Below are positions 4,243 through 46,808 of a stretch of DNA of 64,000 nucleotides, piece after piece. Under the pieces are notes generated by a model. The model searched no databases, had not been told where the DNA came from, and saw nothing but the letters and a program-made list of their open reading frames with translations. The stretch covers positions 1,061-65,060 of the forward strand of contig CAZNGL010000002.1 of assembly GCA_964572405.1 (NCBI GenBank), given 5' to 3'. The DNA is from an uncultured Bacteriovoracaceae bacterium (lineage in GTDB: Bacteria; Desulfobacterota; Desulfomonilia; UBA1062). The translations under genes and the position numbers were made by a program. Positions within the stretch are counted from its first letter, which is position 1. Every line of letters starts with the position of its first letter.

Positions 4243-5160
4243 TCATCCCTCTTCGAGATCTTCCTCCGTCTTGAAGGTGCCGGCCCACCTGCGGTTGATC
4301 TCCTGCTGGATGTCCTCGATGGCGGCCTGGTCCATGAGCCTGAACCGCGCCTGGGCCTTGAAGTACTCCGCCACCGGCACCAGCGACCGCTTGTCCGCGA
4401 TCTTCTGGGATGCCCCGGTGAGCCGCACCACCGAGTTCTCCACCTCGTAGAGCTCGAACAGGCCCGTCTCCACGGCGAGCTTGCCCATCTTCACGGTGCA
4501 GCGGGGCTCGAACCCCCAGCCCGGCGGGCAGGGGATCTGGATGTGGAGGTACTTCACCCCGGGCAGGTCCACGGCCTTCTTCACCTTGTCGTAGAGGTCC
4601 AGGGGGTAGGCCGCTGAGCAGGTGGCCACGTAGGACAGGTTGTGGGCCGCCATGATGGCCGGCACGTCCTTCTTCTGCTGAAATTTCCCCTTGATGGGCG
4701 TGTTGGCCGTGATGGCGCCCCTGGGCGTGGTGCCCGAGCGCTGCACCCCGGTGTTCATGTACCCCTCGTTGTCGTAGCAGATGAACAGGAAATCGTCCCC
4801 GCGCTCGGCCGCCCCGGAGAGCGCCTGGAGGCCGATGTCCGCCGTGCCTCCGTCCCCGGCCCAGGCCACGACCCTGGTGTGGTCCCTGCCCAGGGCCCTC
4901 AGCGCCGCGAGCATGCCCGTGGAGGCGGCCGCGGTGGAGGCGAAGGTGACGTTCAGACAGGGGAGCTTGGTGGCGGCCACCGGGTAGAGCCCCTGGAGCA
5001 CGGTGAGGCAGCTGGGCGGCACCACGAGGATGGTGTCTTTCCCAAGGGCCTTGAGCGCGATGCGGTATGCGGTGCCCAGGCCGCATCCGGCGCAGGCCCG
5101 TGTGCCCGGGTTGACGAACTCCTCTTCCGGCAGGCTCAGGATGGTGGTCTTGGTGGTCAT
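4243..5160 (-). CDS. 2-oxoacid:ferredoxin oxidoreductase beta subunit (TPP-binding, PorB-type), operon 1
   Basis: 305 aa. GDG...CYDNEGYMNTG TPP/Mg-binding motif. Cys cluster CAGCG. Last gene of the G-D-A-B operon. Confidence 0.8.
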   Translation of the reverse strand: MTTKTTILSLPEEEFVNPGTRACAGCGLGTAYRIALKALGKDTILVVPPSCLTVLQGLYPVAATKLPCLNVTFASTAAASTGMLAALRALGRDHTRVVAWAGDGGTADIGLQALSGAAERGDDFLFICYDNEGYMNTGVQRSGTTPRGAITANTPIKGKFQQKKDVPAIMAAHNLSYVATCSAAYPLDLYDKVKKAVDLPGVKYLHIQIPCPPGWGFEPRCTVKMGKLAVETGLFELYEVENSVVRLTGASQKIADKRSLVPVAEYFKAQARFRLMDQAAIEDIQQEINRRWAGTFKTEEDLEEG

Positions 5161-5175
5161 GGCAGCGTCTCCCCT

Positions 5176-6381
5176 TCAGATCTTCAGCCCGATCCAGGCG
5201 GTTTCATCCGTGAGCGGCGCCTTGTCCGTGCAGGCGGCCTTCATGGCATCGTAGAGCTCCCGGGTCTTGATCTCCCTGCCGCCCAGGCCCAGGATGCAGT
5301 TGCGGACAAAGGGCGTCCTCTTCCGGGAGCCGGCAGCCGGATAGAGGGCCGCCTTGATGTCCGAGCAGAGCGGCCCCTCGTACCCGTAGCTCAGCGCCTT
5401 CTCGAACACGACCACGCCCTGGGCCGATGCGAGCACTTCGGCAACGGCCCGGGCCGGGAACGGGCGGTAGAGGTGGACGCTCATGATGCCCGCTTTGATG
5501 CCGTCCTTCCTCAGGGCGTCGACGACCTCCCGCAGGTGGTAGGAGAGCGAGCCCACGGCCACGGCGATGAACCGCGCGTCCTCGCACCGGTAGGTCTCGT
5601 AGAAGGGGTCGCCCCCCCTGCCGAACTGTTTCCTGAAACGCTCCTCCACGCCGGCCATGGCGCCTAGTGCCCGCTGCATGTCCTCCTGGAGGAGGTAGCG
5701 GATCTCCATGTACCCGTGGGCCACGTTGCCCAACGTGTCGGGCCTCACGTCCGGGAGCGTCACGGTGTTGAGGTTGGCAGGTTTTTCCGGGTCGAGGGCG
5801 TACTCCGGCCTATACGGGGGCAGGAACGCGTCCACCATGGCCTGGTCCGGGACTTCGAAGGGCATGTAGGTGTGCGACAGGAGGTAGCCGTCGTAGCAGA
5901 GCATGACCGGGACCATGACCTCTTCGGCCAGCATGTAGGACTTGATCACGCCGTCGATGATCTGCTGGTGGTCGTTCGCGTAGAGCTGGATCCAGCCGGT
6001 GTCGCGCTGGGACATGGAGTCCTGGTGGTCGTTCCAGATGGTCCAGGGCGCGCCCACGCCGCGGTTCACCACGCACATGACCAGCGGCAGCCTGGCGCCC
6101 GCGGCCCAGTGGATCTGCTCGTGCATGTAGAGCAGGCCGTTGGCGCTGGTGGCGGTGAAGGCCCGGGCGCCCGTGGACGAGGCAGCGATGCACACGGCGA
6201 GCGCGCTGTGCTCGCTCTCCACCGGGATGTACTGGGAAACCATCTCGCCGGACTCCACGAACTCGGAGAGCTTCTCGGTGAGCGGCGTCTGGGGGGTGAT
6301 GGGGTATGCGGCGATGACCTGCGCCCGCGAGAGCTTCACGCCCAACGCTGCGGCCACGTTTCCTGATTCGATGATATGCAT
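5176..6381 (-). CDS. 2-oxoacid:ferredoxin oxidoreductase alpha subunit (PorA-type), operon 1
   Basis: 401 aa. YPITPQTPL N-terminal motif typical of the OFOR alpha subunit. Confidence 0.85.
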   Translation of the reverse strand: MHIIESGNVAAALGVKLSRAQVIAAYPITPQTPLTEKLSEFVESGEMVSQYIPVESEHSALAVCIAASSTGARAFTATSANGLLYMHEQIHWAAGARLPLVMCVVNRGVGAPWTIWNDHQDSMSQRDTGWIQLYANDHQQIIDGVIKSYMLAEEVMVPVMLCYDGYLLSHTYMPFEVPDQAMVDAFLPPYRPEYALDPEKPANLNTVTLPDVRPDTLGNVAHGYMEIRYLLQEDMQRALGAMAGVEERFRKQFGRGGDPFYETYRCEDARFIAVAVGSLSYHLREVVDALRKDGIKAGIMSVHLYRPFPARAVAEVLASAQGVVVFEKALSYGYEGPLCSDIKAALYPAAGSRKRTPFVRNCILGLGGREIKTRELYDAMKAACTDKAPLTDETAWIGLKI

Positions 6382-6384
6382 CCC

Positions 6385-6705
6385 TTACTTCTTCCTCTCT
6401 TCGGTCTGGATGAAACAGGATTCCTCCACCATGGTGATGGCCTTGGTGGGGCACTCCTCGGCGCAGATGCCGCAGCCCTTGCAGTACTCGAGGTCGATGG
6501 CGGGCGGGACGGTCCTGGTGATGACCCCGTCCGGACAGTAGAGCCAGCAGATGTAGCACGCGGGCGCCCCGCGCTTGGCCGGGATGCAGGTCTGCGGGTC
6601 CATGACCGGGCGGGCGACCCGCCACGACCCGGTCCTGCCGCCGTCCCCGGGGCCCGGCTGGCTGTGCGACGTCTTTCTTCCATAGCTGCGGGTACCCACG
6701 TTCAA
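6385..6705 (-). CDS. 2-oxoacid:ferredoxin oxidoreductase delta subunit (2x[4Fe-4S] ferredoxin, PorD-type), operon 1
   Basis: 106 aa. Two CxxCxxCxxxCP clusters (CYICWLYCP, CKGCGICAEECP). TTG start overlapping the porG stop (TTGA). Confidence 0.7.
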   Translation of the reverse strand: MNVGTRSYGRKTSHSQPGPGDGGRTGSWRVARPVMDPQTCIPAKRGAPACYICWLYCPDGVITRTVPPAIDLEYCKGCGICAEECPTKAITMVEESCFIQTEERKK

Positions 6706-7262
6706 CCTCCCATCAGGGTGTGTTCATAGGCGAGCCGGGCCGCCTTGGCGTTCCGTTCGGGTCTGCGCTGGGCGAATTCCTCCTTGATCTCCTCCACGAG
6801 CATGTCCATGCCGACGATGCCGCTCGCCCTCGCAAAGGCGCCGATGATGCCGGAGTTCACCATGCCCTCGGGAAGGCCTGCCTTCACCGACAGCGAGGTG
6901 ACGTCGCAGATGGCCACCCGGTACCGGTCGTAGTGGTAGGCGTCGATGCTGCAGGGGGTGTTGACCACGATGATGCCCCCCTCCTTGAGCCCTGAGGTGA
7001 TGTCCGCCTCCTCCAGCAGCACGTGGTCGAGCACCACCACGATGTCGGGGCGCTCGATGGGGGAGAGGTCGTAGATCTTCTCCTTGGAGATCTTCAGCGA
7101 GGTGAACACCGGCGCTCCCCTGCGCTCGGTCCCGAAGGTGGGCACCATGGCCACGCCCGGGTATCCGGAGGCGAACATGGCCTTGGCCACGATCTTCGCC
7201 GCGGTGATGGCCCCCTGGCCGCCCCTGCCGTGCCACCTGATGTCGATGGAATCCTGTGTCAT
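6702..7262 (-). CDS. 2-oxoacid:ferredoxin oxidoreductase gamma subunit (PorG-type), operon 1
   Basis: 187 aa from ATG 7260-7262 (MTQDSIDIRWHGRGGQGAITAAKI...), GGAGC RBS. The 287-aa ORF in the track is an upstream extension, not used. Confidence 0.8.
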   Translation of the reverse strand: MTQDSIDIRWHGRGGQGAITAAKIVAKAMFASGYPGVAMVPTFGTERRGAPVFTSLKISKEKIYDLSPIERPDIVVVLDHVLLEEADITSGLKEGGIIVVNTPCSIDAYHYDRYRVAICDVTSLSVKAGLPEGMVNSGIIGAFARASGIVGMDMLVEEIKEEFAQRRPERNAKAARLAYEHTLMGG

Positions 7263-7626
7263 ATCCGCTCCCGTCTTCCTCTTCGCCGTTGCCTGCATTG
7301 ACGGGCACGTTTCAGCCGCGCCGTGCACGCCTTGCGTATTCCTTGTCCGGGTACCGGGTCTGGACAGAGACAAGCATGAAAGGCCTTCCCAAAAGGACAT
7401 GGCCTGGCAGGGACCTGCCGATGGCCGGTTTTGCCCGTGCCTCGACCCCCTGCATGCGCTGCCGGTGACCGCTCGTGTTCCTCCGTGAATCCGTGCCGCC
7501 TGTCGTGGATCGCCGTGCCTGGAACTGTGCGAACACACTATATACCACAACACGGGGTTTATCAAGGCACATACTTTGCATAAAACCTTGGCGTGTCTGA
7601 GAAACCATTGCCTGAGAGGAGCACCG

Positions 7627-8604
7627 ATGATCGCACGTCAGACCAGGGATAATGCAGCGAGGAGAAAGACGGGCATGATCGCTCAGGACCGGGACAAGCC
7701 CCTGGCCCTGTTCACCGAGAGCATGATGAGCGTGCTCAAGAGCCGCACTGCATCGAGCGCGTGCGCCGAACTCGTCTCGCTCATGGGGCAGACCTTCCCG
7801 CTGTCCGCGCCAGCGCTCTACGTGAGCGTCCAGGGCGCACAGCCGCAGGTGTACTCCGTGCTCGATGCCTCCCAGGGAGGCGACGTCGATGCCCGGCGGA
7901 TGCTCGGTGAAAAGGGCTGCGCCTACACCCGTGTGCTGGCCGGCGGCCAGGCCCCGTACCTTCCTTCCCGGGTGGACATCCCCCTCATCGCCTCGCCCGG
8001 TGCCCAGGTGACCCTGTCCATCAACCCGGGTGTCCATGAGGGGATCTTCGCAGAATGGGTCAAATATTTGACGCCAGCCATCGCCAAGCTCCTGGACAAC
8101 GAGCTCCTCATGAACATGGCCTTCCGCGACGGTCTCACGGGGCTGCTCAACTACCGTGCGTTCTCCGAGATCCTCCCGGCCGAGTGGGAGCGGTCCCGGC
8201 GCTACCGGACGGTCTTTTCGCTCATGATGATCGACATCGACCATTTCAAGCGAATCAACGACGAGCACGGGCATCCCGTGGGAGACATGGTGCTCAAGGC
8301 CGTCGCCTCAGGGCTCCAGGGAAGGGTGCGCAAGAGCGACCTGGTGTTCCGGTACGGGGGCGAGGAGTTCATGGTCATGCTGCCCCAGACAGGGCTCTCC
8401 AAGGCCCACCTGCTGGCCGAGCGGATACGCGGATATGTGGGAAAGATGCGGCTCCCGGCCGGGATCGCGCTCACCGTCAGCATCGGCATCAGCCAGTATC
8501 GGGATGGACTCACGCCTGCGGATCTTGTAGAACAGGCGGATGCGGGGCTCTATCGCGCCAAGGGAAGGGGCCGCAACCGCGTGGAGGCATACGAGGGAGT
8601 ATAA
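7627..8604 (+). CDS. GGDEF-domain diguanylate cyclase with N-terminal sensory region
   Basis: RYGGEEF active site. DIDHFKRIND metal/GTP-binding motif. Start placed at the ATG preceded by a GAGAGGAG RBS (in frame with the longer 7576 ORF). Confidence 0.8.
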   Translation: MIARQTRDNAARRKTGMIAQDRDKPLALFTESMMSVLKSRTASSACAELVSLMGQTFPLSAPALYVSVQGAQPQVYSVLDASQGGDVDARRMLGEKGCAYTRVLAGGQAPYLPSRVDIPLIASPGAQVTLSINPGVHEGIFAEWVKYLTPAIAKLLDNELLMNMAFRDGLTGLLNYRAFSEILPAEWERSRRYRTVFSLMMIDIDHFKRINDEHGHPVGDMVLKAVASGLQGRVRKSDLVFRYGGEEFMVMLPQTGLSKAHLLAERIRGYVGKMRLPAGIALTVSIGISQYRDGLTPADLVEQADAGLYRAKGRGRNRVEAYEGV

Positions 8605-8625
8605 TTCCTTGCAAAGGACTTGGGA

Positions 8626-9456
8626 ATGAATATTGACAGTCTCCTTGATCTGGGCTCGGGGCTCGCCGCCCACGGTCCCGACGGCAAGAGGGTAAAGGGC
8701 AGGGTCACCGAGGTACTTGAGGAGGACCTCTTCGTGTTCGTCCCGGAGGAACCGCTCGACGTGACCATCGGCTCCATCGTGAAGGTGACCGACGGCCAGG
8801 ACTCGGTCATGGGCAGGGTGGTGGAGAGGACCGAGAAGGGGCTGAAGCTCGCCGTGGAGTGCTACCTCTCCCCGGGGCACGAGCGTCGCCAGGACGTCAG
8901 GATCTACGACAAGGTCTACTACAGCGCCGGCCTGCTCTGCCCGGCCGCCGAGAAGTCCAGGGCGCTGCCGGAGGCCATGGCGCGCATCCAGGCCAGCAAG
9001 CTCATCCTCGACTCGTTCCTCAAGGGCAAGTACGGCCACCCCGGCTCCGACGACGCAGCGCCCCAGCGGGAGGCGGGTCTGAGCCAGGGGCTCTGGGAGA
9101 TCAACCGCAAGCTCGACCTGCTCATCCACATGGTCCTTGCCGACGAGTTCAAGGAGCTCATGACGAGTGCCCCCAAGGAGGTCAACATCTCCGCCTCGGG
9201 CATCCGGTTCATCTCGGACGAATCCCGGGAGATGGGAGACCTGATGGAGATCCGGATCATCCTCCCCATGGCGCCGCTGCTGTTCGTGAGGCTCGTGGGA
9301 GAGGTGATCCGCCAGAAGGCCTTGACCAGCACGCCCGTGACCAGCCGCTATGCCGTGGCCGTGAAGTTCCTGAAGATCGATACGGACACCCGCGAGGACA
9401 TCATCCGCTACCTCTTCATGCGGCAGCGCGAGGTGCTCCGGAAGAGACAGGTCTGA
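8626..9456 (+). CDS. PilZ-domain c-di-GMP effector protein (two-domain, YcgR-like arrangement)
   Basis: C-terminal NISASGIRF ((D/N)xSxxG) and the typical C-terminal helix. RRQDVR (RRxxxR) lies in the N-terminal beta-rich domain. 10-15 bp gaps to GGDEF upstream and PBP downstream. Confidence 0.6.
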   Translation: MNIDSLLDLGSGLAAHGPDGKRVKGRVTEVLEEDLFVFVPEEPLDVTIGSIVKVTDGQDSVMGRVVERTEKGLKLAVECYLSPGHERRQDVRIYDKVYYSAGLLCPAAEKSRALPEAMARIQASKLILDSFLKGKYGHPGSDDAAPQREAGLSQGLWEINRKLDLLIHMVLADEFKELMTSAPKEVNISASGIRFISDESREMGDLMEIRIILPMAPLLFVRLVGEVIRQKALTSTPVTSRYAVAVKFLKIDTDTREDIIRYLFMRQREVLRKRQV

Positions 9457-9499
9457 CCCATCAGGATTGACACCCGACCCCCCACCCGCCTATAGAGGG

Positions 9500-11761
9500 G
9501 TGGTCGTGACACGCACCCGCAGGTTCATCATCGGGGGCATCTGCGCCCTCGCGCTCCTTGGCATGCTGCTGCTTGCCGTCTGGACCGCGAATGCCTACCG
9601 GGAGATGAGGAGGATCCAGACCGGCACCCTGTGGCGGCTGCCCACCAGGGTGTATGCGGCCCCATTCGAGCTCTCTCCCGGCATGGACATCGCCCGGGCC
9701 GGTCTCACGGAGAGGCTTGCGCACCTGAGATACCGCAGGATGGAGCAGGCTGGCTCGCCAGGCCAGTACAGTACCACCCCCGGCCGCATGGTGATCCGAA
9801 GGCGCCGGTTCGTGGACGCCCATGGCGACCATCCGTCCGCCAGGGTGGAGCTCGACCTGGAGGGAAGCCGTATCAGGAGGGTGCTTTCCGGGGATTCGCG
9901 GCAGGAGGTTTCTTCGGCGCGGATCGAGCCCGAATGCATCGCAACCCTGTACGACGGCGGGTACGAGGACCGCGAGATCGTGTCCCTGAAGGACTGTCCG
10001 CCCGTGCTCATCGATGCCCTGCTGAGCGTGGAGGACCGCAGGTTCCGGGAGCATCCGGGCATCGATGTACGGGCCATGGCCAGGGCCCTGCTGGCGGACC
10101 TGTTCAGCGCCCGGGTGGTGGAGGGCGGATCCACCATCACCCAGCAGCTCGTGAAGAACCTGTTCCTCTCCCACGAGAGGACCCTCGGCCGCAAGCTGAA
10201 GGAGGCCTGGCTCGCGCTCATCATGGAGACGGCCTTCACCAAGGACGAGATCCTCGCCCTGTACCTCAACGAGATCTATCTCGGCCGCAGCGGGTATGCG
10301 GGTATCCACGGGTTCGCCAGGGCCTCGAGGCTGTTCTTCGACAAGGAGGTGTCCTCCCTCGACCTGCACGAGGCCGCCCTGCTGGCGGGCATCGTGCGCT
10401 CGCCGAACCGCTACTCGCCCTATACCCACCCGAAGGCCGCCCTGGACCGCAGGAATACCGTGCTCACGCTCATGCACGACCAGGGGAGGGTGTCGTCACG
10501 GAGCTGCCGGGAGGCCCTGAAGAAGCCGCTGGGCGTGGTGCCCTTCACCCCGGCCGTGCGGCAGGCCCCCTACTTCGTCGATTACGTGGTCTCTGCGCTG
10601 CGCAGGATGTTCCCGGGTGAAGAGGGGGCAGTGACGTCGGGGCTGAACGTCTACACCACCCTGGACATGCACGCGCAGCGCACGGCCGAGGACGCCGTCC
10701 GCAGGACAGTCGCCTCCATGCCCGCACGCGTCCAGGCGGCCGTGGTGGTCCTCAGGCCGTCCACCGGGGAGATCCTGGCCATGGTGGGGGGGAGGGACTA
10801 CCGCGTCTCCCAGTTCAACCGGGCCGCAAGCGCCAGGCGGAGCATCGGCTCGCTCATCAAGCCCATGGTCTACTACACGGCCCTGAGGAACGGGTACGCC
10901 CTGTCCAGCCTCGTCGAGGATACCCCGGTGAGTGTCCCCCTGCCCGACGGGAGCGTGTGGTCACCCGTGAACTACGACGGCCGGAGCCATGGGGAGGTGC
11001 TGCTGGTGGACGGTCTGGCCTTCTCCCACAACCAGGCCACGGTCCGGCTCGGGCTCGATGTGGGCCTGGACCGGGTGGTGGCCGAGGCGAAGAAGGTCAT
11101 GCCTCAGACCCGGGTACCGGCGCACCCGTCCGTGCTCCTGGGGGCAGTGGACTGTTCGCCCCTGGACGTGGCCCTGATGTATGCGGTCTTCGCCGGCAGG
11201 GGCATGCGGCCCGGGGTGTCGGCGATCACGGCCGTCCTCGACGGGCACGGCGCGGTCCTCCACAGCGCCGGGCCGAACCCTGGCGAGCGCGTCCTGGACG
11301 AGGGGGCAACGTATCTCGTGAGTGCCGCCCTCCGGGAGGCCATGAGGAGGGGGACCGCCAGGGCCGCCCATGCCTACGGGGTCCCGGCCGGGGTGTGCGG
11401 CAAGACCGGCACCACCAACGACCTGCGGGACTCCTGGTTTGCCGCGTACACAGAGGATGTCGTCACCGTGGCATGGATGGGGGACGACTCCTTCCGGTCC
11501 ATCGGGCTCAGCGGCGCCCAGGGGGCCCTGCCCGTGGCTGCGAGGATCATGGCCCGGATCGCCTCCCCCGCGGTCTCTCATGCCCCCGAGGGGATCGCCT
11601 TCTGCGAGGTGGACCCGGTGAACGGCAAGCGGGCCACCGCATGGACCGCATCGCCCCTGACCCTGCCTTTCATTGCGGGGACCCAGCCCGAGCAGGAGTC
11701 CACCGAGGGCATGCCCGGACTCTTCAAGGTGCTGCGCTCCCTGTTCAGGTTCGACAGGTAG
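9500..11761 (+). CDS. Class A penicillin-binding protein (bifunctional glycosyltransferase/transpeptidase, PBP1C-like length)
   Basis: GT51 motifs EDRRFREHPGID and GGSTITQQLVKN. Transpeptidase SIGSLIK (SxxK), SHN, KTGTT. Short cytoplasmic N-terminus plus a TM helix. Start ambiguous (TTG 9467 / GTG 9500-9506). Confidence 0.85.
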   Translation: MVVTRTRRFIIGGICALALLGMLLLAVWTANAYREMRRIQTGTLWRLPTRVYAAPFELSPGMDIARAGLTERLAHLRYRRMEQAGSPGQYSTTPGRMVIRRRRFVDAHGDHPSARVELDLEGSRIRRVLSGDSRQEVSSARIEPECIATLYDGGYEDREIVSLKDCPPVLIDALLSVEDRRFREHPGIDVRAMARALLADLFSARVVEGGSTITQQLVKNLFLSHERTLGRKLKEAWLALIMETAFTKDEILALYLNEIYLGRSGYAGIHGFARASRLFFDKEVSSLDLHEAALLAGIVRSPNRYSPYTHPKAALDRRNTVLTLMHDQGRVSSRSCREALKKPLGVVPFTPAVRQAPYFVDYVVSALRRMFPGEEGAVTSGLNVYTTLDMHAQRTAEDAVRRTVASMPARVQAAVVVLRPSTGEILAMVGGRDYRVSQFNRAASARRSIGSLIKPMVYYTALRNGYALSSLVEDTPVSVPLPDGSVWSPVNYDGRSHGEVLLVDGLAFSHNQATVRLGLDVGLDRVVAEAKKVMPQTRVPAHPSVLLGAVDCSPLDVALMYAVFAGRGMRPGVSAITAVLDGHGAVLHSAGPNPGERVLDEGATYLVSAALREAMRRGTARAAHAYGVPAGVCGKTGTTNDLRDSWFAAYTEDVVTVAWMGDDSFRSIGLSGAQGALPVAARIMARIASPAVSHAPEGIAFCEVDPVNGKRATAWTASPLTLPFIAGTQPEQESTEGMPGLFKVLRSLFRFDR

Positions 11762-11830: not shown

Positions 11831-12091
11831 ATGGATTTCCGGAAAGACCACTGCGCCTGGTGCGCCATGAGGGACGGTCCCATCGAGGACTGCGGACCCT
11901 GCCCCAAGTACCGGCGCCACGCCCTCGGGCTCGACGGGGCCCTGACCATGGATGCCTTCTGCGGCGTCTGCATCCACCGCGGCGAGAGCGGGCTCGAGGT
12001 CTTCTGCCGGACCAACCGGTTCCTCCAGGAGGACAGCGGTGAGGACTTTGACTGCTACCGGTTCAGCATCAAGCCCCTCACAGGCGGCTAA
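11831..12091 (+). CDS. Small Cys-rich hypothetical protein (possible zinc ribbon)
   Basis: 86 aa with three CxxC pairs (CAWC, CGPC, CGVC). No strong RBS. Confidence 0.25.
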   Translation: MDFRKDHCAWCAMRDGPIEDCGPCPKYRRHALGLDGALTMDAFCGVCIHRGESGLEVFCRTNRFLQEDSGEDFDCYRFSIKPLTGG

Positions 12092-15325: not shown

Positions 15326-17047
15326 ATGGCTGTGAAGAACGAACCATGGCATGAGCGCTTTCTCGGCGAGACGCGGGAGCTCTACCATCAGAGGGTGCTC
15401 GCCATCCTCCTGATCGGCATCGTCCTGATCCCGCTCTTCAGCATCCTCGATTACGTGGTGGTGCGGCCCCACTTCCAGCTCTTCCTGCTCTACCGGCTGG
15501 GCTGCGCCTGCATCCTCACGGGCTTCCTCATCCTGTATTTCTCCCAGTGGGGCAGGGCGCTGGCGTACCCCATCTCCATCATCGCATACCTCATCTCGGG
15601 TGCCACCATCACGCTCATGTGCGTGAAGATGGGGGGGTACGACTCGTTCTACTACGTGGGGGTCGTCATGGTCCTGGTGGCGGTCCTGGTCATCCTGCCG
15701 CTGAATGCACTGCAGGGGGCGGTCCTCGGGGTGGTGCTCTACATCGTCTATGCGGTTCCCATCGTGCTTCTTTCCCGGCATACGCCGGAAAACCTGAACG
15801 TCTTCTTCAGCAACAGCTTCTTCTTCGCGTTCTTCATCGTCATCGCCGTGCTGAAGTGCTTCGAGGACACGAGGGCCCGCAAGCGCGAGGTGAAGCTCAA
15901 GAGCGAGATGGATGCCCTGGCGGAACGGCTTTCGTACTATGCACACAATCTCGAGTCAGACGTGGAGAAGCGGGTGAAGCAGCTCGAGGAGTCCGAGCTG
16001 CGGTACCGGGAACTCTACGAGAACATCATCGACATCGTGCTCCTCGTGGACAGAGACTCCCGGATCCTCATGGCCAACCCCCGGTTCTACGAGTTCATCG
16101 GCTCCGCCGACGAGAAGGCCCACACCAATTTCCTGAGCCTGGTGCATCCCTCACAGATGAGCCTGGTGGAGCGCATGATCATCCGGCTCCCCGTGGAGCA
16201 GACCGTGAAGGACCTCCAGTTCAAGATCGTGAACCGGCAGGGCAGGGTGTTCGACGTGGAGTGCAACGCCAAGTGCATCATGAAGGAATACCAGATCGTG
16301 GGGTTCCAGCTCGTGATCCGCGACATCACCGTGCGCAAGCGCCTGGAGAAGGACCTCCTCGAGTCCTACAAGAAGGTGCAGAGCGCCCGGAACGCCACCA
16401 TCCTCGGGCTCGCCAAACTCGCCGAGTACCGGGACGCCGACACGGGCGCCCACCTGGAGCGGATCAGGGAGTACAGCAAGGTGGTGGCCGAGGAACTCGC
16501 CCAGCACAGCGAGTACGCGGGCTACATCACCGCCGACTACATCGAGGACATCTACAATTCCTCCATTCTCCATGACATCGGCAAGGTGGGCATCCCGGAC
16601 GCCATCCTCCTGAAGCCGGGGCGGCTCAATCCCGATGAGTTCGAGGTGGTCAAGCGCCACTCGGCCCTGGGGGGCGAGGCCCTCAAGGAGGTGGAGGCGA
16701 AGATCGAAGGCCAGTCCTTCCTGACGCTCGGCAAGGAGATCGCCTACTACCACCACGAGAAGTGGGACGGGACGGGCTACCCCAGGGGTCTCAAGGGCGA
16801 GCAGATACCCCTGTCGGCCAGGATCGTGGCCCTGGCCGACGTGTACGATGCGCTCACCTCCAAGCGTGTCTACAAGGACGCGTACTCCCACGAGGACGCG
16901 AAGAAGATCATCGTGGAGAGCCGCGGCACCCATTTCGCCCCCGACGTGGTGGACGCGTTCATCAAACACGAGCACACCTTCCGCAGGATCAGGGAAGAAC
17001 TCTTCAAGGACCAGGAACTTCCGGAACACCGCTATTCGGCTGGATGA
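15326..17047 (+). CDS. Membrane-anchored (7TM-type) PAS-domain HD-GYP c-di-GMP phosphodiesterase
   Basis: N-terminal multi-helix hydrophobic region and a PAS-like middle. HD-GYP signature ILHDIGKVGIPD ... YHHEKWDGTGYPRGL. Confidence 0.8.
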   Translation: MAVKNEPWHERFLGETRELYHQRVLAILLIGIVLIPLFSILDYVVVRPHFQLFLLYRLGCACILTGFLILYFSQWGRALAYPISIIAYLISGATITLMCVKMGGYDSFYYVGVVMVLVAVLVILPLNALQGAVLGVVLYIVYAVPIVLLSRHTPENLNVFFSNSFFFAFFIVIAVLKCFEDTRARKREVKLKSEMDALAERLSYYAHNLESDVEKRVKQLEESELRYRELYENIIDIVLLVDRDSRILMANPRFYEFIGSADEKAHTNFLSLVHPSQMSLVERMIIRLPVEQTVKDLQFKIVNRQGRVFDVECNAKCIMKEYQIVGFQLVIRDITVRKRLEKDLLESYKKVQSARNATILGLAKLAEYRDADTGAHLERIREYSKVVAEELAQHSEYAGYITADYIEDIYNSSILHDIGKVGIPDAILLKPGRLNPDEFEVVKRHSALGGEALKEVEAKIEGQSFLTLGKEIAYYHHEKWDGTGYPRGLKGEQIPLSARIVALADVYDALTSKRVYKDAYSHEDAKKIIVESRGTHFAPDVVDAFIKHEHTFRRIREELFKDQELPEHRYSAG

Positions 17048-17135: not shown

Positions 17136-17696
17136 CTACTGCTCGGGAGCCGCCTCGGGGGACGGGGCCTTGCCGGCGCCGCGGTAGCTCACCAGACGCT
17201 GGGTGATGGTCGCCGCCTTGACGGGTTCCATGTAGGACAGGATGCCGCCAGCCACGTCGCCCTTCAGGCCGAGGAAGACCTCCACCGCCACGTCGGTGTC
17301 CAGGTTGTTCATCAGGTTCGCTGCGGCCCCCGGCTTCATGGAGGAGTAGATTTTCACGAGGTGCTTGATCCTCTCGCTGCTGGCGAACCGGTACGCCGCC
17401 AGGTCGGCCTTGATGGCTGCCTCGACGGCCTCGAGGCGTGCGATCTTTTCCTGGACCTGCTGTTCCAGTTCCTTGAGCTCCTTCTCGCGGGCCTTGAGGC
17501 GTTCCTCCTTCTGGCGGATGATCTCCGCCTGATCGGCCGGGGTCATCCCGATAGGCTGCTGCAGAATGGGCTGGGTCTGGTTCTTCTGGGTTGTCTGGGT
17601 GTCCACCGCCGCCACCGGGGCGGGCCTCACGGCGAGGTAGATGCCCACCAGGGACAGATTGATGATGAGCAGTCCGAGCAGAATCTTCACCTTCAT
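17136..17696 (-). CDS. Flagellar-operon protein with MgtE-N-like domain (YlxF/MotE-like), secreted or membrane anchored
   Basis: N-terminal TM/signal, coiled coil, C-terminal MgtE_N-like segment (PGAAANLMNNLDTDVAVEVFLGL). Sits after fliJ as ylxF does in Bacillus. ATGA overlap with fliJ. Confidence 0.45.
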   Translation of the reverse strand: MKVKILLGLLIINLSLVGIYLAVRPAPVAAVDTQTTQKNQTQPILQQPIGMTPADQAEIIRQKEERLKAREKELKELEQQVQEKIARLEAVEAAIKADLAAYRFASSERIKHLVKIYSSMKPGAAANLMNNLDTDVAVEVFLGLKGDVAGGILSYMEPVKAATITQRLVSYRGAGKAPSPEAAPEQ

Positions 17697-18133
17697 CTCT
17701 TACCTCCAGCCTTTATGACGGCGATCTCGTCCAGGAAGTTCATCTCGTGCTTCCTCTCGATCTCGTCATACCGGGCCTGGTGGATCTCCCTGAGCCGCAT
17801 GATCCCCTTGTGGGCACGTTTCGCCTTCAGGAGTGCTTCACGTTTCTCGTCCACCAAGCGCCCTGCCTTTTCTATGTTCTCGTCGATGCGCGCGATGCCT
17901 TCCTCCAGATGATGGAGGTATGTGTAGTACTGCCGCACCTCTTCCGATGTGACGCCGCCCTGCATCCTGGTCATGAGCTCCGCCCTGAGCACCTCCTTGC
18001 GGATCATGACCTGCTCCCTCATGGCCACGAGCGTGCTCATCTGGCGCTGGGCCTGGGACAGGGCCTGCTGCGCCAGGTTTTCCTGGATCCTCCGCACGTT
18101 CAAAAGGATGGCGAACCTGAACCGGAAGGCCAT
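17693..18133 (-). CDS. fliJ: Flagellar export chaperone FliJ
   Basis: 146-aa coiled-coil protein directly downstream of fliI in conserved order. Confidence 0.65.
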   Translation of the reverse strand: MAFRFRFAILLNVRRIQENLAQQALSQAQRQMSTLVAMREQVMIRKEVLRAELMTRMQGGVTSEEVRQYYTYLHHLEEGIARIDENIEKAGRLVDEKREALLKAKRAHKGIMRLREIHQARYDEIERKHEMNFLDEIAVIKAGGKR

Positions 18134-18134
18134 G

Positions 18135-19466
18135 TCACGCCTTTCCCGCGTTCTTCGCGGCCGTGATGGCGTTCATCTGGGCCACGGACTCCTCGATGGT
18201 GGCCTTCTCGTTGATGCCCTGCCTCAGGAACCGGGTGATGGCATCGTGGTGGCGGATCGCCGTGTCGATCTCGGGGTTGTTCCCCGCCACGTAGGCGCCG
18301 ATGTTGATGAGGTCGCGTGCCTCCTCGTACACCGCCGACAGGGACAGGATGTCCCTTGCCGACTTCAAGTGCTTTTCATCCACGATGTCGTTCATGACCC
18401 TGCTCACGCTCCTGAGGATGTCGACGGCCGGGTAGTGGGCCCTGGAGGCCAGCTCCCGGGAGAGCACGATGTGTCCGTCCACGATGGACCTCACCGTGTC
18501 TGCCACGGGCTCGGTCATGTCGTCGCCCTCCACGAGCACCGTGTAGAGGCCGGTGATGCTCCCCTTGGACGCGGTGTTGCCGACGCGTTCCAGCAGTTTG
18601 GGCATCTTGGCGAAGCACGACGGGGTATAGCCCTTGGTGGTGGGGGGCTCTCCCACGGCCAGCCCGATCTCCCGCATGGACATGGCGAACCGGGTGATGG
18701 AGTCCATCATGAGGAGGACGTCCTTGCCCTGGTCGCGGAAGTACTCCGCAATGGCCGTGGCGAGGTACGCCCCCCGGATGCGGATCAGGGAGGGCTGGTC
18801 GGATACGGCCGCGACCACCACGGACCGCTTGAGGCCCTCATCGCCCAGGTCCCGCTCCAGGAATTCCTTGACCTCCCTGCCGCGCTCGCCGATGAGCGCG
18901 ATGACGTTCACGTCGGCCTTGGTGTGGCGTGCCATCATGCCCAGGAGCACGCTCTTGCCGACGCCGGAGCCCGCCATGATGGCCATGCGCTGGCCCTTGC
19001 CCACGGTCAGCAGGCCGTTGATGGCCTTGATGCCGAGGTCCAGGGGCGTATCGATGCGCCTCTTCTTCAGGGGGTTGTAGGGGTTGCCGTAGAGCGGCAT
19101 CTCCTGGTCCAGCACCAGCGGTCCCTTGCCGTCCAGGGGTTCGCCCATGCCGTCGATGACCCTGCCCAGCATGTCGCCGCCCACCTTGACCGTGGGCTGC
19201 GATTTCCGGGCGATGATCATGCTGCCCGGCCCGATGCCGCTCAGGTCGCCCAGCGGCATGAGGAGGACCCGCTTGTCGCGGAACCCCACCACCTCCGCCA
19301 TGATGGACTCCCTGCGGGACCGCGAGAATATCTCGCACATGCCGCCCATGGCGCTGCCCGGGCCGTGCCCCTCCACCACCAGGCCCACGATGTTGGTGAC
19401 CTTGCCGCGGACCAGGATGGGGTCCTGCTCCCTGAGCGCCAGGATCTGTCGTCGCAGGTCGATCAT
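18135..19466 (-). CDS. fliI: Flagellum-specific ATP synthase FliI
   Basis: Walker A GSGVGKS, Walker B LLMMDS, T3SS-ATPase family. Start set at MIDLRRQ (ATGA overlap with the fliH stop). The longer 522-aa ORF is an artefact. Confidence 0.9.
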   Translation of the reverse strand: MIDLRRQILALREQDPILVRGKVTNIVGLVVEGHGPGSAMGGMCEIFSRSRRESIMAEVVGFRDKRVLLMPLGDLSGIGPGSMIIARKSQPTVKVGGDMLGRVIDGMGEPLDGKGPLVLDQEMPLYGNPYNPLKKRRIDTPLDLGIKAINGLLTVGKGQRMAIMAGSGVGKSVLLGMMARHTKADVNVIALIGERGREVKEFLERDLGDEGLKRSVVVAAVSDQPSLIRIRGAYLATAIAEYFRDQGKDVLLMMDSITRFAMSMREIGLAVGEPPTTKGYTPSCFAKMPKLLERVGNTASKGSITGLYTVLVEGDDMTEPVADTVRSIVDGHIVLSRELASRAHYPAVDILRSVSRVMNDIVDEKHLKSARDILSLSAVYEEARDLINIGAYVAGNNPEIDTAIRHHDAITRFLRQGINEKATIEESVAQMNAITAAKNAGKA

Positions 19467-20107
19467 TTCTCCAGCACGGCCTCTCTCAGGTGCTCTATCT
19501 GCGAGCGGATGCTCGCATCGATCTCGCCGAACTCGGTGTCGATGATCACACCCCCGCGGTCCAGGGTGGTGTCCTCCACGAAATGCAGGGTGCGCTTGCC
19601 GGTGAGGTGGGTGGACAGGATTCGCTCGATGTCGCGCATGTACTCGAAGTCCGAGGGGTGGAGCCGGATGCGGATCTCCTCGGTCTCGGACAGGTGGGTG
19701 CATGCCTGCCTCACCGTGTCAAGGACGATGTCCGGGGACAGGTTGATCTCGCGGTGGATGATGCGCTCGGCGATGAGGAACAGGATCTCCAGGATCTGGT
19801 CCTGGTGCTTCTCCACGATGAGCTGCCTGATCTTCTTCACTTCCTCCACGGCCTTCGTGAGCGTCTGGAACAGGGGCTCGATCCGCTTGACCGCCATCTT
19901 CTGGCCCTGGGCCTGACCCTGCTCCAGGCCCTTGCGGTAGGCCTCCATCTCGATGGCCTCCTTCTCGGCCCGCGCCCTCTTGAGGATGGCCTCGGCCTGG
20001 GCCTGGGTGTCCTTGAGGCTGGCCTTGGCCTGCATCTCCCTGGCCTTGTACGGGGTGACGCTGGCGTCCCGCGGGTCGCCGCCCCGGATGATCTTAGACG
20101 AGGACAT
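19463..20107 (-). CDS. fliH: Flagellar assembly protein FliH
   Basis: 214 aa with charged coiled-coil N-terminus. Position between fliG and fliI. Confidence 0.7.
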   Translation of the reverse strand: MSSSKIIRGGDPRDASVTPYKAREMQAKASLKDTQAQAEAILKRARAEKEAIEMEAYRKGLEQGQAQGQKMAVKRIEPLFQTLTKAVEEVKKIRQLIVEKHQDQILEILFLIAERIIHREINLSPDIVLDTVRQACTHLSETEEIRIRLHPSDFEYMRDIERILSTHLTGKRTLHFVEDTTLDRGGVIIDTEFGEIDASIRSQIEHLREAVLEK

Positions 20108-21113
20108 CTTCCCCGCCCTTTCCGCCGATGACGATCTTGCCGGCCGCCTCGAGCTTGCGCGCCACGCGCACGATGTTCTGCTGGGCGTTCTCCACGTCCG
20201 AGAGCTTCACCGGGCCCATGGTCTCCATATCCTCCAGGAGCATCTCGGATGCACGCGAAGACATGTTCTTGAGGATGTGGTTCTTGAGCGTCTCGCTGGA
20301 GGTCTTGAGCGCCAGGGAGAGGTCCTCGTTGGTGATCTCCTTGAGGATGGTCTGGATGCCGCGGTTGTCGATGTTGATCAGGTCCTCGAAGACGAACATC
20401 TTCTGGCGGATGGTTTCCGCCAGGTCGGCGTCGATCTCCTCCAGCGAGGCGAAGATGTTGTTCTCGGTATTGTGGTCGAGCTGGTTCATGATCTCGGCAA
20501 CGGTCTCGACGCCGCCGAGTTTCTTGCTCTCCACGCTGCCCATCGCCTCGATCTCCTTCTTGAGCACCTCGTCCACGTCCTCTATGACCCCGGAGGGGAC
20601 CATGCCGAGGTTCGCGATGCGGAAGACGATCTCGTGCTGGAGCTTTTCAGGCATCTCCTTGATGATCTGGGCGACCTTCTGGTGGTCGAGGTGGGCCAGC
20701 ACCAGGGCGATGGTCTGGGGGTGCTCGCCCTTGAGGTAGTCCACCAGGATGGACGGGTCGATGGAACGCAGCGACGAGAAGGCCGCCGTGTCCATGGCCA
20801 GGGAGATGGAGTCCAGGATAGGTTTGGCCTTGTCCTGGCCCAAGGCCGACACGAGGGCATCGCGCAGGTAGGTGATGCCCTTGCCGGTGACGCCGCTCAC
20901 CTCGCCGGAGAGCTGCTCGAATTCGTCCATGATGGTGCGGACCGTGTCCACCGGGATGGTCACGTCCTCGAGGGCTGCCATGCGCCTGCCGAGCAGCATC
21001 ATTTCGTGCTCGGTGAGGCCCTTGAAAATGGCCTGGGTGAAGTCGTCTCCCATTGCCATGAGAAAGATCGCGGCCTTCTGCGGGCCGTCAACCCTCTTGA
21101 GTTTTCCCATCAT
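20094..21113 (-). CDS. fliG: Flagellar motor switch protein FliG
   Basis: 339 aa. FliG N/middle/C domains. Conserved synteny. Confidence 0.85.
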   Translation of the reverse strand: MMGKLKRVDGPQKAAIFLMAMGDDFTQAIFKGLTEHEMMLLGRRMAALEDVTIPVDTVRTIMDEFEQLSGEVSGVTGKGITYLRDALVSALGQDKAKPILDSISLAMDTAAFSSLRSIDPSILVDYLKGEHPQTIALVLAHLDHQKVAQIIKEMPEKLQHEIVFRIANLGMVPSGVIEDVDEVLKKEIEAMGSVESKKLGGVETVAEIMNQLDHNTENNIFASLEEIDADLAETIRQKMFVFEDLINIDNRGIQTILKEITNEDLSLALKTSSETLKNHILKNMSSRASEMLLEDMETMGPVKLSDVENAQQNIVRVARKLEAAGKIVIGGKGGEDVLV

Positions 21114-22729
21114 GCATTCTCCTGCAGCCAGGATTTCACCACCGCCGTGGCGGTGTTCATGTCATTCTTCGTGATGTGCTCGATGGTCTTGCGCTTGCCC
21201 TGCACGGCCCGCTTCATCTCGTCGCTCTTGGCCACGGCCTCGATCTGCGGAATCTCCTCGCCGCCTTCCAGCAGCTCGCGGTCCTCTGCCGGAATCCCCC
21301 GCTCATGGACGTGGACGCGCTCCACCACCCGGCCGGACCTGGTGGTGAGCCACTTGAGCAGCGGCCGTATGACCAGGAAGAGCACCAGCAGGATCGCGAG
21401 GAAGGCGAGCGTGTACTTCACCAGGGTCATGATGAGCTCCCGGTTCTTTTCCAGGGTGGACATGGCGGCGACGTCGGTGTCGTCCTGGGCGAACGGCATG
21501 CAGGACACCGAGATGAGGTCTTCCCGGTCCGCGTTGAACCCCACCGCGTTCTTCACCGCGTTCTCGATCTCCCTGAGCTCGGAGGCCTGCCGGGCCACGA
21601 ACAGCTTGTTGCCGTCCTTGTCGGTCTTGTACGTCCCGTCCACCACCACGGACACCGTCAATTTCTTGACTTCGCCCGGGGAGTAGATGCGTTCCGTCTG
21701 GTTCCTGCCGATCTCGTAGTTCCGCACGATGGACCCGGCGCCCGCGGCATCCTGGCCCGGGACCGCCTCGGGGCCGCCCCTGCCCGTGGGGAGGTTCGAC
21801 GGCGTGCCCGCGGCGCCCTGGGTGTCACCCCGGGCCGCTGCATACTGGTTCTTGAGCTCCTCGGAACGCACCACGTGGATCTCGGGGTCGTACATGTCCT
21901 GGACGCTCTTGACCATGTCCATGTTCACGTCAGCGCTCACCTTCACCACGGCGGCGTTCGGACCCACGATCTTTTCCAGGAGGTCCTCGGAGCGTTCCTG
22001 CAGCTGGTGCTCGATGGCCCTCTTGAACTCGAGGCGGTCGCTGGCCATGGTGACCGAGTCGGAGTCCTTCTTCCCCTCGTAGAGGACCCTTCCCCTGATG
22101 TCCACGATGCTGATGTTCTCGGGATCGAGCCCCCGGATGCTCTTCTCCACCAGGTACACGATGCCCTGTACCCGGGAGGGACCCATCTGCATGCCGGGCT
22201 TTGCCCGGATGACGATGGATGCCTTGGCGGGCTTCTCGTCCTCGATGAAGATGCTCTCCTTGGGCATGGCGATGTGGACCCGTGCGAACTCGACCTCTTC
22301 CAGGGACATGATAGTGTTGGCCAGCTCGTTCTGCAGGGCCCGCTGGTAGTTGATCTTCTGCACGAACTCGGAGGTGGCGAATCCGGTCTCGTCGAACAGC
22401 GCGAAGCCCTTGTCCGTGCCCCCCTTGGGGATGCCCTCGGCGGCCAGCGTCAGGCGCGTCTCGTAGACGTTCTCCTCAGGGATCATGACGGCGGTCCCGC
22501 CCTTGGTGAGGCGGTAGGGGATGCGGTCGTCCTTGAGGCGCTGCACCACCAGGGACGCGTCCTGCTCGTTCAGGTTCGTGAACAGGTACTGGTACTTCGG
22601 CGCGGTGGCCCACATGATGCTCACCGCGATGACCGCAAGGGCCATGGCGCTCACGGCCACGAGGCCGATCCGCTGGCCCATGCTCATGGCGGTGAATTTG
22701 GCCGGAAGCTGTTTTACGAGGTTCATCAT
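21110..22729 (-). CDS. fliF: Flagellar M-ring protein FliF
   Basis: 539 aa. N- and C-terminal TM helices. ATGA overlap with fliG. Confidence 0.85.
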   Translation of the reverse strand: MMNLVKQLPAKFTAMSMGQRIGLVAVSAMALAVIAVSIMWATAPKYQYLFTNLNEQDASLVVQRLKDDRIPYRLTKGGTAVMIPEENVYETRLTLAAEGIPKGGTDKGFALFDETGFATSEFVQKINYQRALQNELANTIMSLEEVEFARVHIAMPKESIFIEDEKPAKASIVIRAKPGMQMGPSRVQGIVYLVEKSIRGLDPENISIVDIRGRVLYEGKKDSDSVTMASDRLEFKRAIEHQLQERSEDLLEKIVGPNAAVVKVSADVNMDMVKSVQDMYDPEIHVVRSEELKNQYAAARGDTQGAAGTPSNLPTGRGGPEAVPGQDAAGAGSIVRNYEIGRNQTERIYSPGEVKKLTVSVVVDGTYKTDKDGNKLFVARQASELREIENAVKNAVGFNADREDLISVSCMPFAQDDTDVAAMSTLEKNRELIMTLVKYTLAFLAILLVLFLVIRPLLKWLTTRSGRVVERVHVHERGIPAEDRELLEGGEEIPQIEAVAKSDEMKRAVQGKRKTIEHITKNDMNTATAVVKSWLQENA

Positions 22730-22731
22730 GG

Positions 22732-23022
22732 CTAGCTCAACCTCTTCAGCTCGTTGAAGCCTTCAATGAGCTTGTTGGTCATGGTCACCATGAGGCGCAG
22801 CGTGATATCGGTCTTCTGCATGGCGATCATGGCCTCGTGGATGCTCGGTGCCCTGCCGGACGAGAGGTCTGTTGCCATCTGCTCGGACTCCTTTGCCTGT
22901 CGGTTGACGGAGTCGATGGCTTCCCTCAGGGTTTCCATGAACGTTCCGCCCTTTCCGGAGGGCTTGTCCTTGGCAGGGGTGAACGGACCGGTCAGGGTGA
23001 AATCAGGCTTGTCGATGCGCAT
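22732..23022 (-). CDS. fliE: Flagellar hook-basal body protein FliE
   Basis: 96 aa. Synteny flgB-flgC-fliE-fliF. Confidence 0.75.
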   Translation of the reverse strand: MRIDKPDFTLTGPFTPAKDKPSGKGGTFMETLREAIDSVNRQAKESEQMATDLSSGRAPSIHEAMIAMQKTDITLRLMVTMTNKLIEGFNELKRLS

Positions 23023-23024
23023 GA

Positions 23025-23426
23025 CTACCTCCCGATCTGCAGCGCCTTGAGCGCCATGTCCTTCTGTGATTTCACGGCGATGGAGTTCGCCTCGAAGGCC
23101 CTGGCTGCGTTCATCATGTTCACCATCTCCTCCATGAGGTTCACGTTGGGCATGGTGACATAGCCCTGTTCGTCCGCGTCAGGGTTGCCCGGGTCGTAAA
23201 TGCGCTCCCCCGGGGTGGTGTTCACGGCGATCTCCTGAACATCCACGCTCGAAAGGGCATCCTTGAAGGACCGTTCCCGCAGGATCACGTCCCTGCGCTG
23301 GTAGGGACCGCCTTCGGGGGTCCTGGTGGTGCGGGCGTTCGCGATGTTGCTGGAAATGACGTTCATCCTGGTGCGCTGGGCCCTCAGGCCGCTCGCGCTG
23401 ATGTCCATGGCGGTGAAAAGGTCCAT
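23025..23426 (-). CDS. flgC: Flagellar basal-body rod protein FlgC
   Basis: 133 aa. N-terminal SNIANANT-like rod motif (SSNIANARTTRTPEGGPYQRR). Confidence 0.85.
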   Translation of the reverse strand: MDLFTAMDISASGLRAQRTRMNVISSNIANARTTRTPEGGPYQRRDVILRERSFKDALSSVDVQEIAVNTTPGERIYDPGNPDADEQGYVTMPNVNLMEEMVNMMNAARAFEANSIAVKSQKDMALKALQIGR

Positions 23427-23809
23427 TACCTGATACCTCCTATCACGTTCCTGAGCCCCTCGAACTTTCTGGTGAGGATTTCCGCCGAAGCATTGTACAG
23501 GAGCTGGTTCTGGCTGAGCTTCATCATCTCCCGGTCGATATCCACGGTGTTGGCGTCGTTCCCGATGCGGGAGTATGGGTCGACCACGGTCCTGTACAGG
23601 GGCCTGCCCGGCGACTCCTTCATGTGGGCGGTGTCGGTGACGGTCATCTTCAGCCGGGAATCCAGCTCCTTCTCGAACGTGGCCTCCCTGGCCTTGTAGC
23701 CGGGAGTGTCCGCATTGGCGATGTTGCTGGAGATGACCTCCTGGCGATAGGTCCGGTACGTCATGTGATCCGTCACTTCCGGGATGATCTTTCCGAAGAT
23801 GTCGCCCAT
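23426..23809 (-). CDS. flgB: Flagellar basal-body rod protein FlgB
   Basis: Start placed at the second ATG (MGDIFG) because an AGGAGAGAGG RBS precedes it. SSNIANADTPGYKA rod motif. Confidence 0.8.
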   Translation of the reverse strand: MGDIFGKIIPEVTDHMTYRTYRQEVISSNIANADTPGYKAREATFEKELDSRLKMTVTDTAHMKESPGRPLYRTVVDPYSRIGNDANTVDIDREMMKLSQNQLLYNASAEILTRKFEGLRNVIGGIR

Positions 23810-23833
23810 ATCCTCTCTCCTCATGCCATTGAA

Positions 23834-23849
23834 AGCAATTGTCGTACCA
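23834..23849 (-). promoter_or_regulatory. Sigma-54 (-24/-12) promoter for the flgB operon
   Basis: Minus-strand TGGTACGACAATTGCT matches TGGCACG-N4-TTGCW with GG and GC correctly spaced. It lies about 25 nt upstream of the flgB ATG and downstream of a sigma-54 activator gene. Confidence 0.5.
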
Positions 23850-45800: not shown

Positions 45801-45956
45801 AATCCGGAATTGAGCCGTATGCTATCTCTAAGAATTTTCTCTCTCTTCTCGTGATGATTTCATGGTCGAAGAATGGTCCATCGACTCTCGAGTGCCTTGA
45901 CAGCATACGTTCAGGGATGTTATGAATCACCATTCAATTCCCGTACAGGAGTTCAT

Positions 45957-46508: not shown

Positions 46509-46511
46509 GAT

Positions 46512-46805: not shown

Positions 46806-46808
46806 GCC

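Follow-up and report, generated by a model that had tools for sequence, protein, structure and literature searches.

YcgR of Escherichia coli, MotI (DgrA, YpfA) of Bacillus subtilis and FlgZ are two-domain PilZ proteins that act as flagellar brakes or clutches. The tetramer-forming PilZ (tPilZ) proteins, among them XCC6012, PA2989, PlzB and FlgX, nearly always stand alone. In XCC6012, helices alpha2 and alpha3 are inserted after strand beta1, the loop between them is flexible, and a heptad helix contains the motif D75-A-K-L-D79 (PMC3131395; bioRxiv 10.1101/814665). PA2989 binds cyclic diguanylate (c-di-GMP), and FlgX binds MotA and is positioned under the MotA pentamer (PMC11725899). In YcgR-GAZ of Leptospira (LIC_11920) the PilZ domain is split after its first strand and RxxxR, and c-di-GMP is still bound with a Kd of 60-300 nM (PMC11800159). 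MotL of Shewanella putrefaciens is a c-di-GMP receptor encoded beside the lateral motAB genes and tunes motor output (PMC8203827). Here we describe a candidate PilZ receptor gene, preceded by a diguanylate cyclase gene and followed by a class A penicillin-binding protein (PBP) gene, in 64,000 nt of DNA of an uncultured Bacteriovoracaceae bacterium (GTDB lineage Desulfobacterota; Desulfomonilia; UBA1062). This stretch, positions 1,061 to 65,060 of contig CAZNGL010000002.1, is called the window below. The three genes and their promoters are arranged as follows.

7566..7580, plus strand: sigma-54 -24/-12 element GGCAC-N5-TTGCA, 46 nt upstream of the cyclase ATG.
7627..8604, plus strand: diguanylate cyclase, 325 aa (Pfam GGDEF).
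8626..9456, plus strand: predicted two-domain c-di-GMP receptor, 276 aa (Pfam PilZ).
9467..9496, plus strand: sigma-70 type promoter of the PBP gene, with -35 TTGACA at 9467-9472, an 18-nt spacer and -10 TATAGA at 9491-9496; the GTG start stands 9 nt after the -10.
9506..11761, plus strand: class A PBP of the PBP1B type, with a short basic tail, one transmembrane helix, UB2H, glycosyltransferase and transpeptidase domains (Pfam, TIGR02071).

Judging by the sequence, these are two transcription units, a cyclase-PilZ operon and the PBP1B gene. We incline by a small measure to the view that the operon, transcribed from the sigma-54 promoter, acts on the flagellar motor, probably on its stator, with an HD-GYP protein encoded downstream as the reset, and that it lies beside an independently promoted, leaderless PBP1B gene. 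The original prediction combined the three genes into one operon in which a dedicated cyclase and receptor control the PBP. The three same-strand open reading frames (ORFs) stand where it placed them. Its cyclase-PilZ gap of 21 nt is exact, the PilZ gene starting with the ATG at 8626; the PilZ-PBP gap is 43-49 nt. The best start of the cyclase is ATG 7627, with the ribosome-binding site GAGAGGAG in front of it.

A PilZ profile built from 28 orthologues retrieved 46 loci, one per species-level genome, and the homologues returned are labelled as Desulfomonilia or as unclassified deltaproteobacterial metagenome-assembled genomes. Gene order was counted by tblastn with the window proteins against these loci, and promoters were predicted from sequence and conservation. 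In 43 of the 46 loci the gene immediately before PilZ is that of the cyclase, and the two are 2-26 nt apart or overlap by 4 nt. The aligned 130 nt upstream of the cyclase contain a near-invariant AAGGCACATACTTTGCATAA, that is, a GG-N10-GC sigma-54 -24/-12 element. The exact sequence GGCACNNNNNTTGCA (GGCAC-N5-TTGCA) has one match in the window. In 40 related loci the relaxed pattern GGCA[CT]-N5-TTGC[AT] precedes the cyclase in the corresponding position, usually as the sole match per locus of about 16 kb. GGYAC-N5-TTGCW has two matches in the 64 kb, upstream of the cyclase and of flgB, against 0.35 expected by chance. The close spacing, the intact motifs (see below) and the shared conserved promoter thus bear out one part of the original prediction, the dedicated cyclase-receptor pair. 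On the minus strand at 7537-7565, and also in related loci, a sequence TTGAT(A/T)-N17-TATAGT is situated back to back with the sigma-54 -24 element. It may be the promoter of the divergent 2-oxoacid:ferredoxin oxidoreductase (POR) operon, which would then have a 5' untranslated region of some 270 nt; alternatively, it may serve the sigma-54 promoter as an upstream site. In L027, L028, L031, L043-L045 and L053, the POR-cyclase intergenic region contains a gene of an Lrp/AsnC-type regulator.

The second promoter lies within the PilZ-PBP1B spacer. TTGACN-N16-19-TATAG has a single match in the window when both strands are scanned, and TTGACA-N16-18-TATAG[A/T] is found directly upstream of PBP1B in 36 of the 38 loci surveyed. 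A consensus promoter scan had missed this site, as TATAGA lacks the T at position 6. In a survey of 34 loci, the distance from the end of the -10 box to the PBP1B start is 8 nt in 18 loci and 9 nt in 13 (31 of 34 together), the start is GTG in nearly all of them, and no Shine-Dalgarno-like sequence is present at PBP1B in 22. Given this geometry, the PBP1B mRNA is predicted to be leaderless or nearly so, with transcription starting on the GTG or no more than 2-3 nt from it. The nucleotide just before the G of the GTG is usually a pyrimidine. TTG 9467, with which the long PBP ORF begins and which was another candidate start, was rejected, as this TTG is part of the -35 hexamer.

The distance between the promoter and the GTG is fixed, whereas the distance between PilZ and the promoter varies, and thus the conserved element appears to be the PBP1B promoter rather than the PilZ junction. 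Spacer lengths lie between 24 and 553 nt (median 93 nt), the -35 hexamer stands -4 to 516 nt from the PilZ stop codon (median 63), and the conserved part of the spacer is its last 40 nt or so. The promoter inside a spacer of variable length speaks against the single operon of three genes. Several relatives have perfect palindromes with 24-26-bp stems between PilZ and the PBP1B promoter (L001, 8860-8915; L009, about 8880-8940; L015, about 8845-8905), which look like REP-like (repetitive extragenic palindromic) or mobile palindromic elements, or terminators. The spacers of L004, L005 and L011 contain AT-rich repeats. The short PilZ-PBP spacers show no enrichment of structure, and strong hairpins are confined to the long ones.

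The original prediction was to be given up if the three-gene arrangement were conserved in no relative. In fact, PBP1B lies downstream of PilZ in 37 of the 45 loci with enough downstream sequence, at PilZ identities down to 45-50%. This conservation is unspecific, since a whole block of more than 20 kb is syntenic, comprising the genes of phosphoglucomutase, an SH3 protein, PALP, POR, the cyclase, PilZ, PBP1B, AMP-ligase, a radical-SAM protein and the HD-GYP protein and the flagellar genes. The further members of the block that matter here are the following.

4243..7262, minus strand: POR operon, gamma-delta-alpha-beta, divergent from the cyclase (Pfam POR).
11831..12091, plus strand: orf86, a small cysteine-rich ORF of 86 aa (conserved in tblastn).
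15326..17047, plus strand: membrane-bound PAS-HD-GYP protein (Pfam PAS and HD_5/HD).

The POR operon is present upstream in every locus with upstream sequence and is the most constant neighbour of cyclase-PilZ. Where the synteny breaks, in eight genomes, cyclase-PilZ or PilZ stays by POR and PBP1B is gone. In L027, L031, L036, L037 and L039, an MBL-fold gene comes after cyclase-PilZ, and the 5-8 kb downstream contain no PBP1B; in L043-L045, PilZ alone stands beside POR. PilZ and PBP1B of L028 are separated by two ORFs (169 aa and 388 aa; 8928-10590), and PBP1B there keeps a promoter-like sequence TTGACA-N16-TATATT.

The PBP is a class A bifunctional enzyme, as was originally predicted. Its Pfam matches are UB2H (E-value 4.9e-16), Transgly (8.9e-63) and Transpeptidase (9.7e-18), UB2H lying between the transmembrane helix and the glycosyltransferase, and its translation contains EDxxFxxH, SxxK (SLIK), SxN (SHN) and KTG. 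The subtype named at first, PBP1C, has to be replaced by PBP1B: the UB2H domain is present, and the score with TIGR02071 (PBP_1b), 674.7 bits, is below the equivalog cutoff of 717.75 and far above the 307 bits with PBP_1c. The architecture, transmembrane helix-UB2H-glycosyltransferase-transpeptidase, and the catalytic motifs are those of PBP1B (MrcB) of E. coli. The cytoplasmic tail of E. coli PBP1B-alpha has about 63 residues. In contrast, the reading frames of all orthologues of the present PBP1B have only a few codons ahead of a short basic stretch (e.g. VTRTRRF, VKGIFRKG), after which comes the transmembrane helix. The cytoplasmic part would thus comprise some 6-10 residues, which leaves little for a soluble PilZ protein to bind, while contact would still be possible. 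The score under the TIGR02071 cutoff and the predicted leaderless GTG mRNA are further differences from the E. coli protein.

The cyclase has a GGDEF domain in its C-terminal half (150.8 bits, E-value 3.5e-44), and the GGEEF active site, called intact in the original prediction, is invariant in 32 orthologues. A product-inhibition site (I-site), R235-K-S-D238, is situated five residues upstream of the active site; in the same 32 sequences R235, S237 and D238 do not vary, and K236 hardly does. The GGDEF domain is preceded by an alpha/beta, sensor-like N-terminal domain (approximately residues 26-135) and a long helix (138-165). Residues 1 to about 160 have no Pfam match. The N-terminal domain used alone as a homologue query returned six fragments only, and the full-length query returned orthologues only. 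Thus no relatives of the sensor domain could be traced beyond the clade. In this respect the protein differs from the PleD/WspR/DgcB-type cyclases, with which it shares the RxxD I-site.

The PilZ domain of the receptor matches PF07238 with 34.8 bits (cutoff 22.5, E-value 2.1e-8), with only profile positions 28-101 aligned, and this model matches all 28 receptor orthologues. The c-di-GMP-binding residues, RRxxxR (R86, R87, R92) and NxSxxG (N187, S189, G192), show little or no variation among these orthologues. The assignment to PilZ, which an insignificant match or missing binding residues would have overturned, therefore stands, and binding of c-di-GMP may be expected. The near-invariant segments ERRxDVRI and VNISAxG are 95 residues apart, with conserved SFLKGxYG and WExNRKLDLL between them. 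An AlphaFold (AF2) model of the monomer, with a predicted local distance difference test (pLDDT) value of 81, has the following elements.

Residues 13-81: N-terminal beta-barrel.
Residues 83-92: low-confidence linker that holds RRxxxR (86-92).
Residues 93-105: long strand beta1.
Residues 107-132: insertion helix 1.
Residues 136-151: disordered, low-confidence loop.
Residues 153-179: insertion helix 2, with N160-R-K-L-D164.
Residues 184-248: rest of the PilZ barrel, beginning with strand 184-188, with N187xSxxG192.
Residues 253-274: basic C-terminal helix.

The six-stranded barrel and the C-terminal helix that characterize the PilZ family are both present. The two motifs are far apart because a two-helix insertion (residues 107-179 or so) follows beta1. 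The original prediction ascribed RRxxxR to the N-terminal domain; in the model it belongs to the linker with which the PilZ domain begins, its place in all PilZ proteins. Nor is the separation of the two motifs unusual, as was suggested: a search of 1.84 billion representatives yielded 534 clusters at 50% identity that match the receptor profile at E<=1e-10. This wider family includes stand-alone forms of about 190 aa and forms of about 250-290 aa with the N-terminal domain; RxxxR, the KLD helix and NISGxG are common to all of them. The beta1-alpha-alpha-beta2 insertion design is common.

This design resembles the tPilZ proteins. The two-helix insertion of about 60 aa between beta1 and beta2 that is typical of tPilZ is found in the AF2 model, and the NRKLDLLI segment corresponds to D75-AKLDLIL of tPilZ alpha3 (PMC3131395). 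In the helix N160-R-K162-L-D164-L-L-I, R161, K162 and D164 are invariant, and L156, I159, L163, L166 and V170 occupy the hydrophobic a/d positions when compared by eye with the published helix (PMC3131395). Oligomerization through this helix is conceivable. In the fold comparison the scores are 12.7 with MotI/YpfA of B. subtilis (5vx6), 12.0 with the PilZ domain of Alg44 (4rt0), 11.7 with the tetrameric PilZ XCC6012 (3ph1), where the 147 aligned residues are the most of any match, and 10.8 with the PilZ domain of YcgR (5y6g). On the other hand, PF16823 (tPilZ), PilZN and PilZNR have no match at E<=10 in the 28 orthologues, 6 distant homologues and 10 wider relatives, and a sequence search of the PDB with the family profile or with the C-terminal domain alone gave only chance-level matches to MinE and RecN. 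Since these models and the PDB are unmatched, and since tPilZ proteins mostly stand alone whereas the receptor has an extra N-terminal barrel, we call it tPilZ-like and YcgR/MotI-like in design and not, by HMM, a member of either family.

The receptor differs from YcgR, MotI and FlgZ not only in the missing PilZN or PilZNR match: its PilZ barrel is broken by a two-helix insertion of about 75 residues, and its gene is paired with a cyclase rather than with motor genes. The insertion of Leptospira YcgR-GAZ is at the same point and is a GAF-like domain, whereas here it is a helical hairpin. MotL, a stand-alone PilZ of 144 aa, has neither insertion nor N-terminal domain, and its gene is downstream of motB.

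The closest relatives of the receptor beyond the clade share 38-41% identity with it over about half of the protein. In all four cases that were looked up, the PilZ gene stands immediately upstream of motA or overlaps it, and motB comes next. In two of the four, PilZ also stands after a response-regulator HD-GYP gene, in a flagellar region with fliS-type and glycosyltransferase genes. In the window, a flagellar cluster is located 8.7 kb beyond PilZ.

17136..23848, minus strand: flgB-flgC-fliE-fliF-fliG-fliH-fliI and an MgtE_N-like ORF (Pfam FliF, FliG, FliH, FliI ATPase).
23834-23848, minus strand: sigma-54 -24/-12 element GGTACGACAATTGCT, just upstream of flgB.
23871-25214: sigma-54 activator gene, ending 46 nt upstream.
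27962-29365, minus strand: sigma-54 activator gene.
52609-54033, plus strand: sigma-54 activator gene.

The labels flgB, flgC and fliE were read from the ORF translations only. FliI and FliJ are encoded in the matching position in relatives. The HD-GYP gene lies between the radical-SAM gene and the fli genes in two relatives (60% and 52% PilZ identity), as it does in the window, and its product is likely to be the c-di-GMP phosphodiesterase of the neighbourhood.

The sigma-54 operon would thus encode a soluble sensor-GGDEF cyclase, with both the active site and the product-inhibition site, and a cytoplasmic receptor. An enhancer-binding protein would fire the promoter, and the cyclase would make c-di-GMP beside the receptor. 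The ligand would clamp the RRxxxR linker onto the barrel, and the receptor, possibly oligomerized via the inserted KLD helix, would act on the flagellar motor. By analogy with YcgR, MotI and FlgX, the most likely target would be the MotA/MotB stator. Resetting would fall to the HD-GYP enzyme encoded 6 kb downstream. PBP1B, made from its own sigma-70 promoter, would be a syntenic neighbour and not a target. Several points weigh against this scheme. The proposed target is not adjacent: tblastn with Nitrospirota queries found no motA, motB or FliS gene in the window or in the 46 loci. The motAB-linked relatives are only 38-41% identical over about half of the length, and the function in Desulfomonilia could be new. 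Flagellar genes are seen in three genomes only, and L052, which has no PBP1B neighbour, shows no fli genes within 10 kb. The tPilZ and PilZN/PilZNR models fail to recognize the receptor. Finally, the window contains no terminator after PilZ, so that read-through into PBP1B is possible.

Direct control of PBP1B by the cyclase-PilZ pair, in which PilZ loaded with c-di-GMP would bind PBP1B at the membrane and switch peptidoglycan synthesis, is very unlikely in our opinion. It is favoured by the same-strand adjacency in 37 of 45 genomes, retained at considerable PilZ divergence, and by the absence of a terminator between PilZ and PBP1B in the window. However, PBP1B exposes few cytoplasmic residues, has a conserved promoter behind a variable spacer, and has been lost from the neighbourhood in eight genomes that keep PilZ; the synteny takes in unrelated genes, and elsewhere the receptor family is linked to motAB. 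There is also no precedent, as a literature search found no paper tying PilZ to PBP1b or to a class A PBP. These observations remove the evidence on which the original prediction of control was based without disproving the link. A variant in which the tPilZ-like receptor, alone or via a MotA/TolQ-type membrane complex, gates PBP1B, so that the sigma-54-controlled cyclase tunes peptidoglycan synthesis, is very unlikely indeed; it would be the first pathway from PilZ to a class A PBP. The coupling could also be purely transcriptional, sigma-54 read-through conditionally boosting PBP1B, and orf86 with it, over the constitutive promoter, with no contact between the proteins. The 49-nt spacer of the window has no terminator-like structure, and the GAGGGG Shine-Dalgarno-like sequence before the GTG, present in the window and 11 other loci, could serve a leadered transcript. 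On the other hand, read-through mRNA would be poorly translated in the 22 of 34 loci that lack such a sequence, the spacers of several relatives contain the long perfect hairpins, and two genes are inserted in L028. We regard this explanation as unlikely.

Doubtful, and still to be taken more seriously, is an autonomous cyclase-PilZ module whose target is not flagellar and is either encoded elsewhere, as another MotA/TolQ/ExbB-type stator or a secretion or polysaccharide machine, or is the POR operon, which diverges from the cyclase and has its putative promoter directly against the sigma-54 element. The constancy of POR as a neighbour is consistent with this, as is the minus-strand sigma-70-like promoter (7565-7537) touching the -24 element. 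MotAB is not adjacent in the window, five genomes keep the pair by the MBL-fold gene, and L052, the one that was extended by 10 kb, is without fli genes. However, none of the receptor's domains hints at enzyme or DNA binding, the fold and the family context point to motor proteins, and both the sigma-54 type of promoter and the neighbourhood are shared with flagellar genes. Action on the flagellar motor, from an operon independent of PBP1B, is thus the reading to which we incline.

PBP1B is followed by orf86 and the DUF47, AMP-ligase, radical-SAM and PAS-HD-GYP genes. The orf86 product has two CxxC motifs and further cysteines and no Pfam or NCBIfam match; the ORF was found after PBP1B by tblastn in 27 of the 46 loci and could share a transcript with it. 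The gene order around it is fixed except for the stretch that separates orf86 from the AMP-ligase gene (12150-12758), which differs between genomes, with DUF47 alone in the window, a NUDIX/IF-2B fusion gene alone in L051, and both of them in L053. An apparent second POR-type operon is located at 45873-48931 on the plus strand, judging from the N-terminal sequences of its three ORFs (gamma-like 45873-46508, alpha-like 46809-47987, beta-like 47999-48931). L004 also contains a second POR-like set, downstream of PBP1B. No paper on flagella of Desulfomonilia was found in the literature search.

If the operon acts on the motor as proposed, the locus does not provide a new route of c-di-GMP to the cell wall. 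Instead, it would be an example of local signalling shared by the clade, in which one sigma-54 operon beside flagellar genes supplies both the cyclase and the receptor. For gene expression in an uncultured class, the conserved promoter that would give PBP1B a leaderless mRNA starting with GTG is a modest but clear-cut observation, and the locus as a whole demonstrates that block synteny can mimic an operon. The receptor joins two designs of motor regulators so far treated apart, the two-barrel layout of YcgR and MotI and the helical tPilZ insertion of FlgX. Its family, with more than 500 clusters at 50% identity, is only half recognized by the current Pfam models, and would be good ground for testing how c-di-GMP-competent tPilZ-like proteins act on stators.

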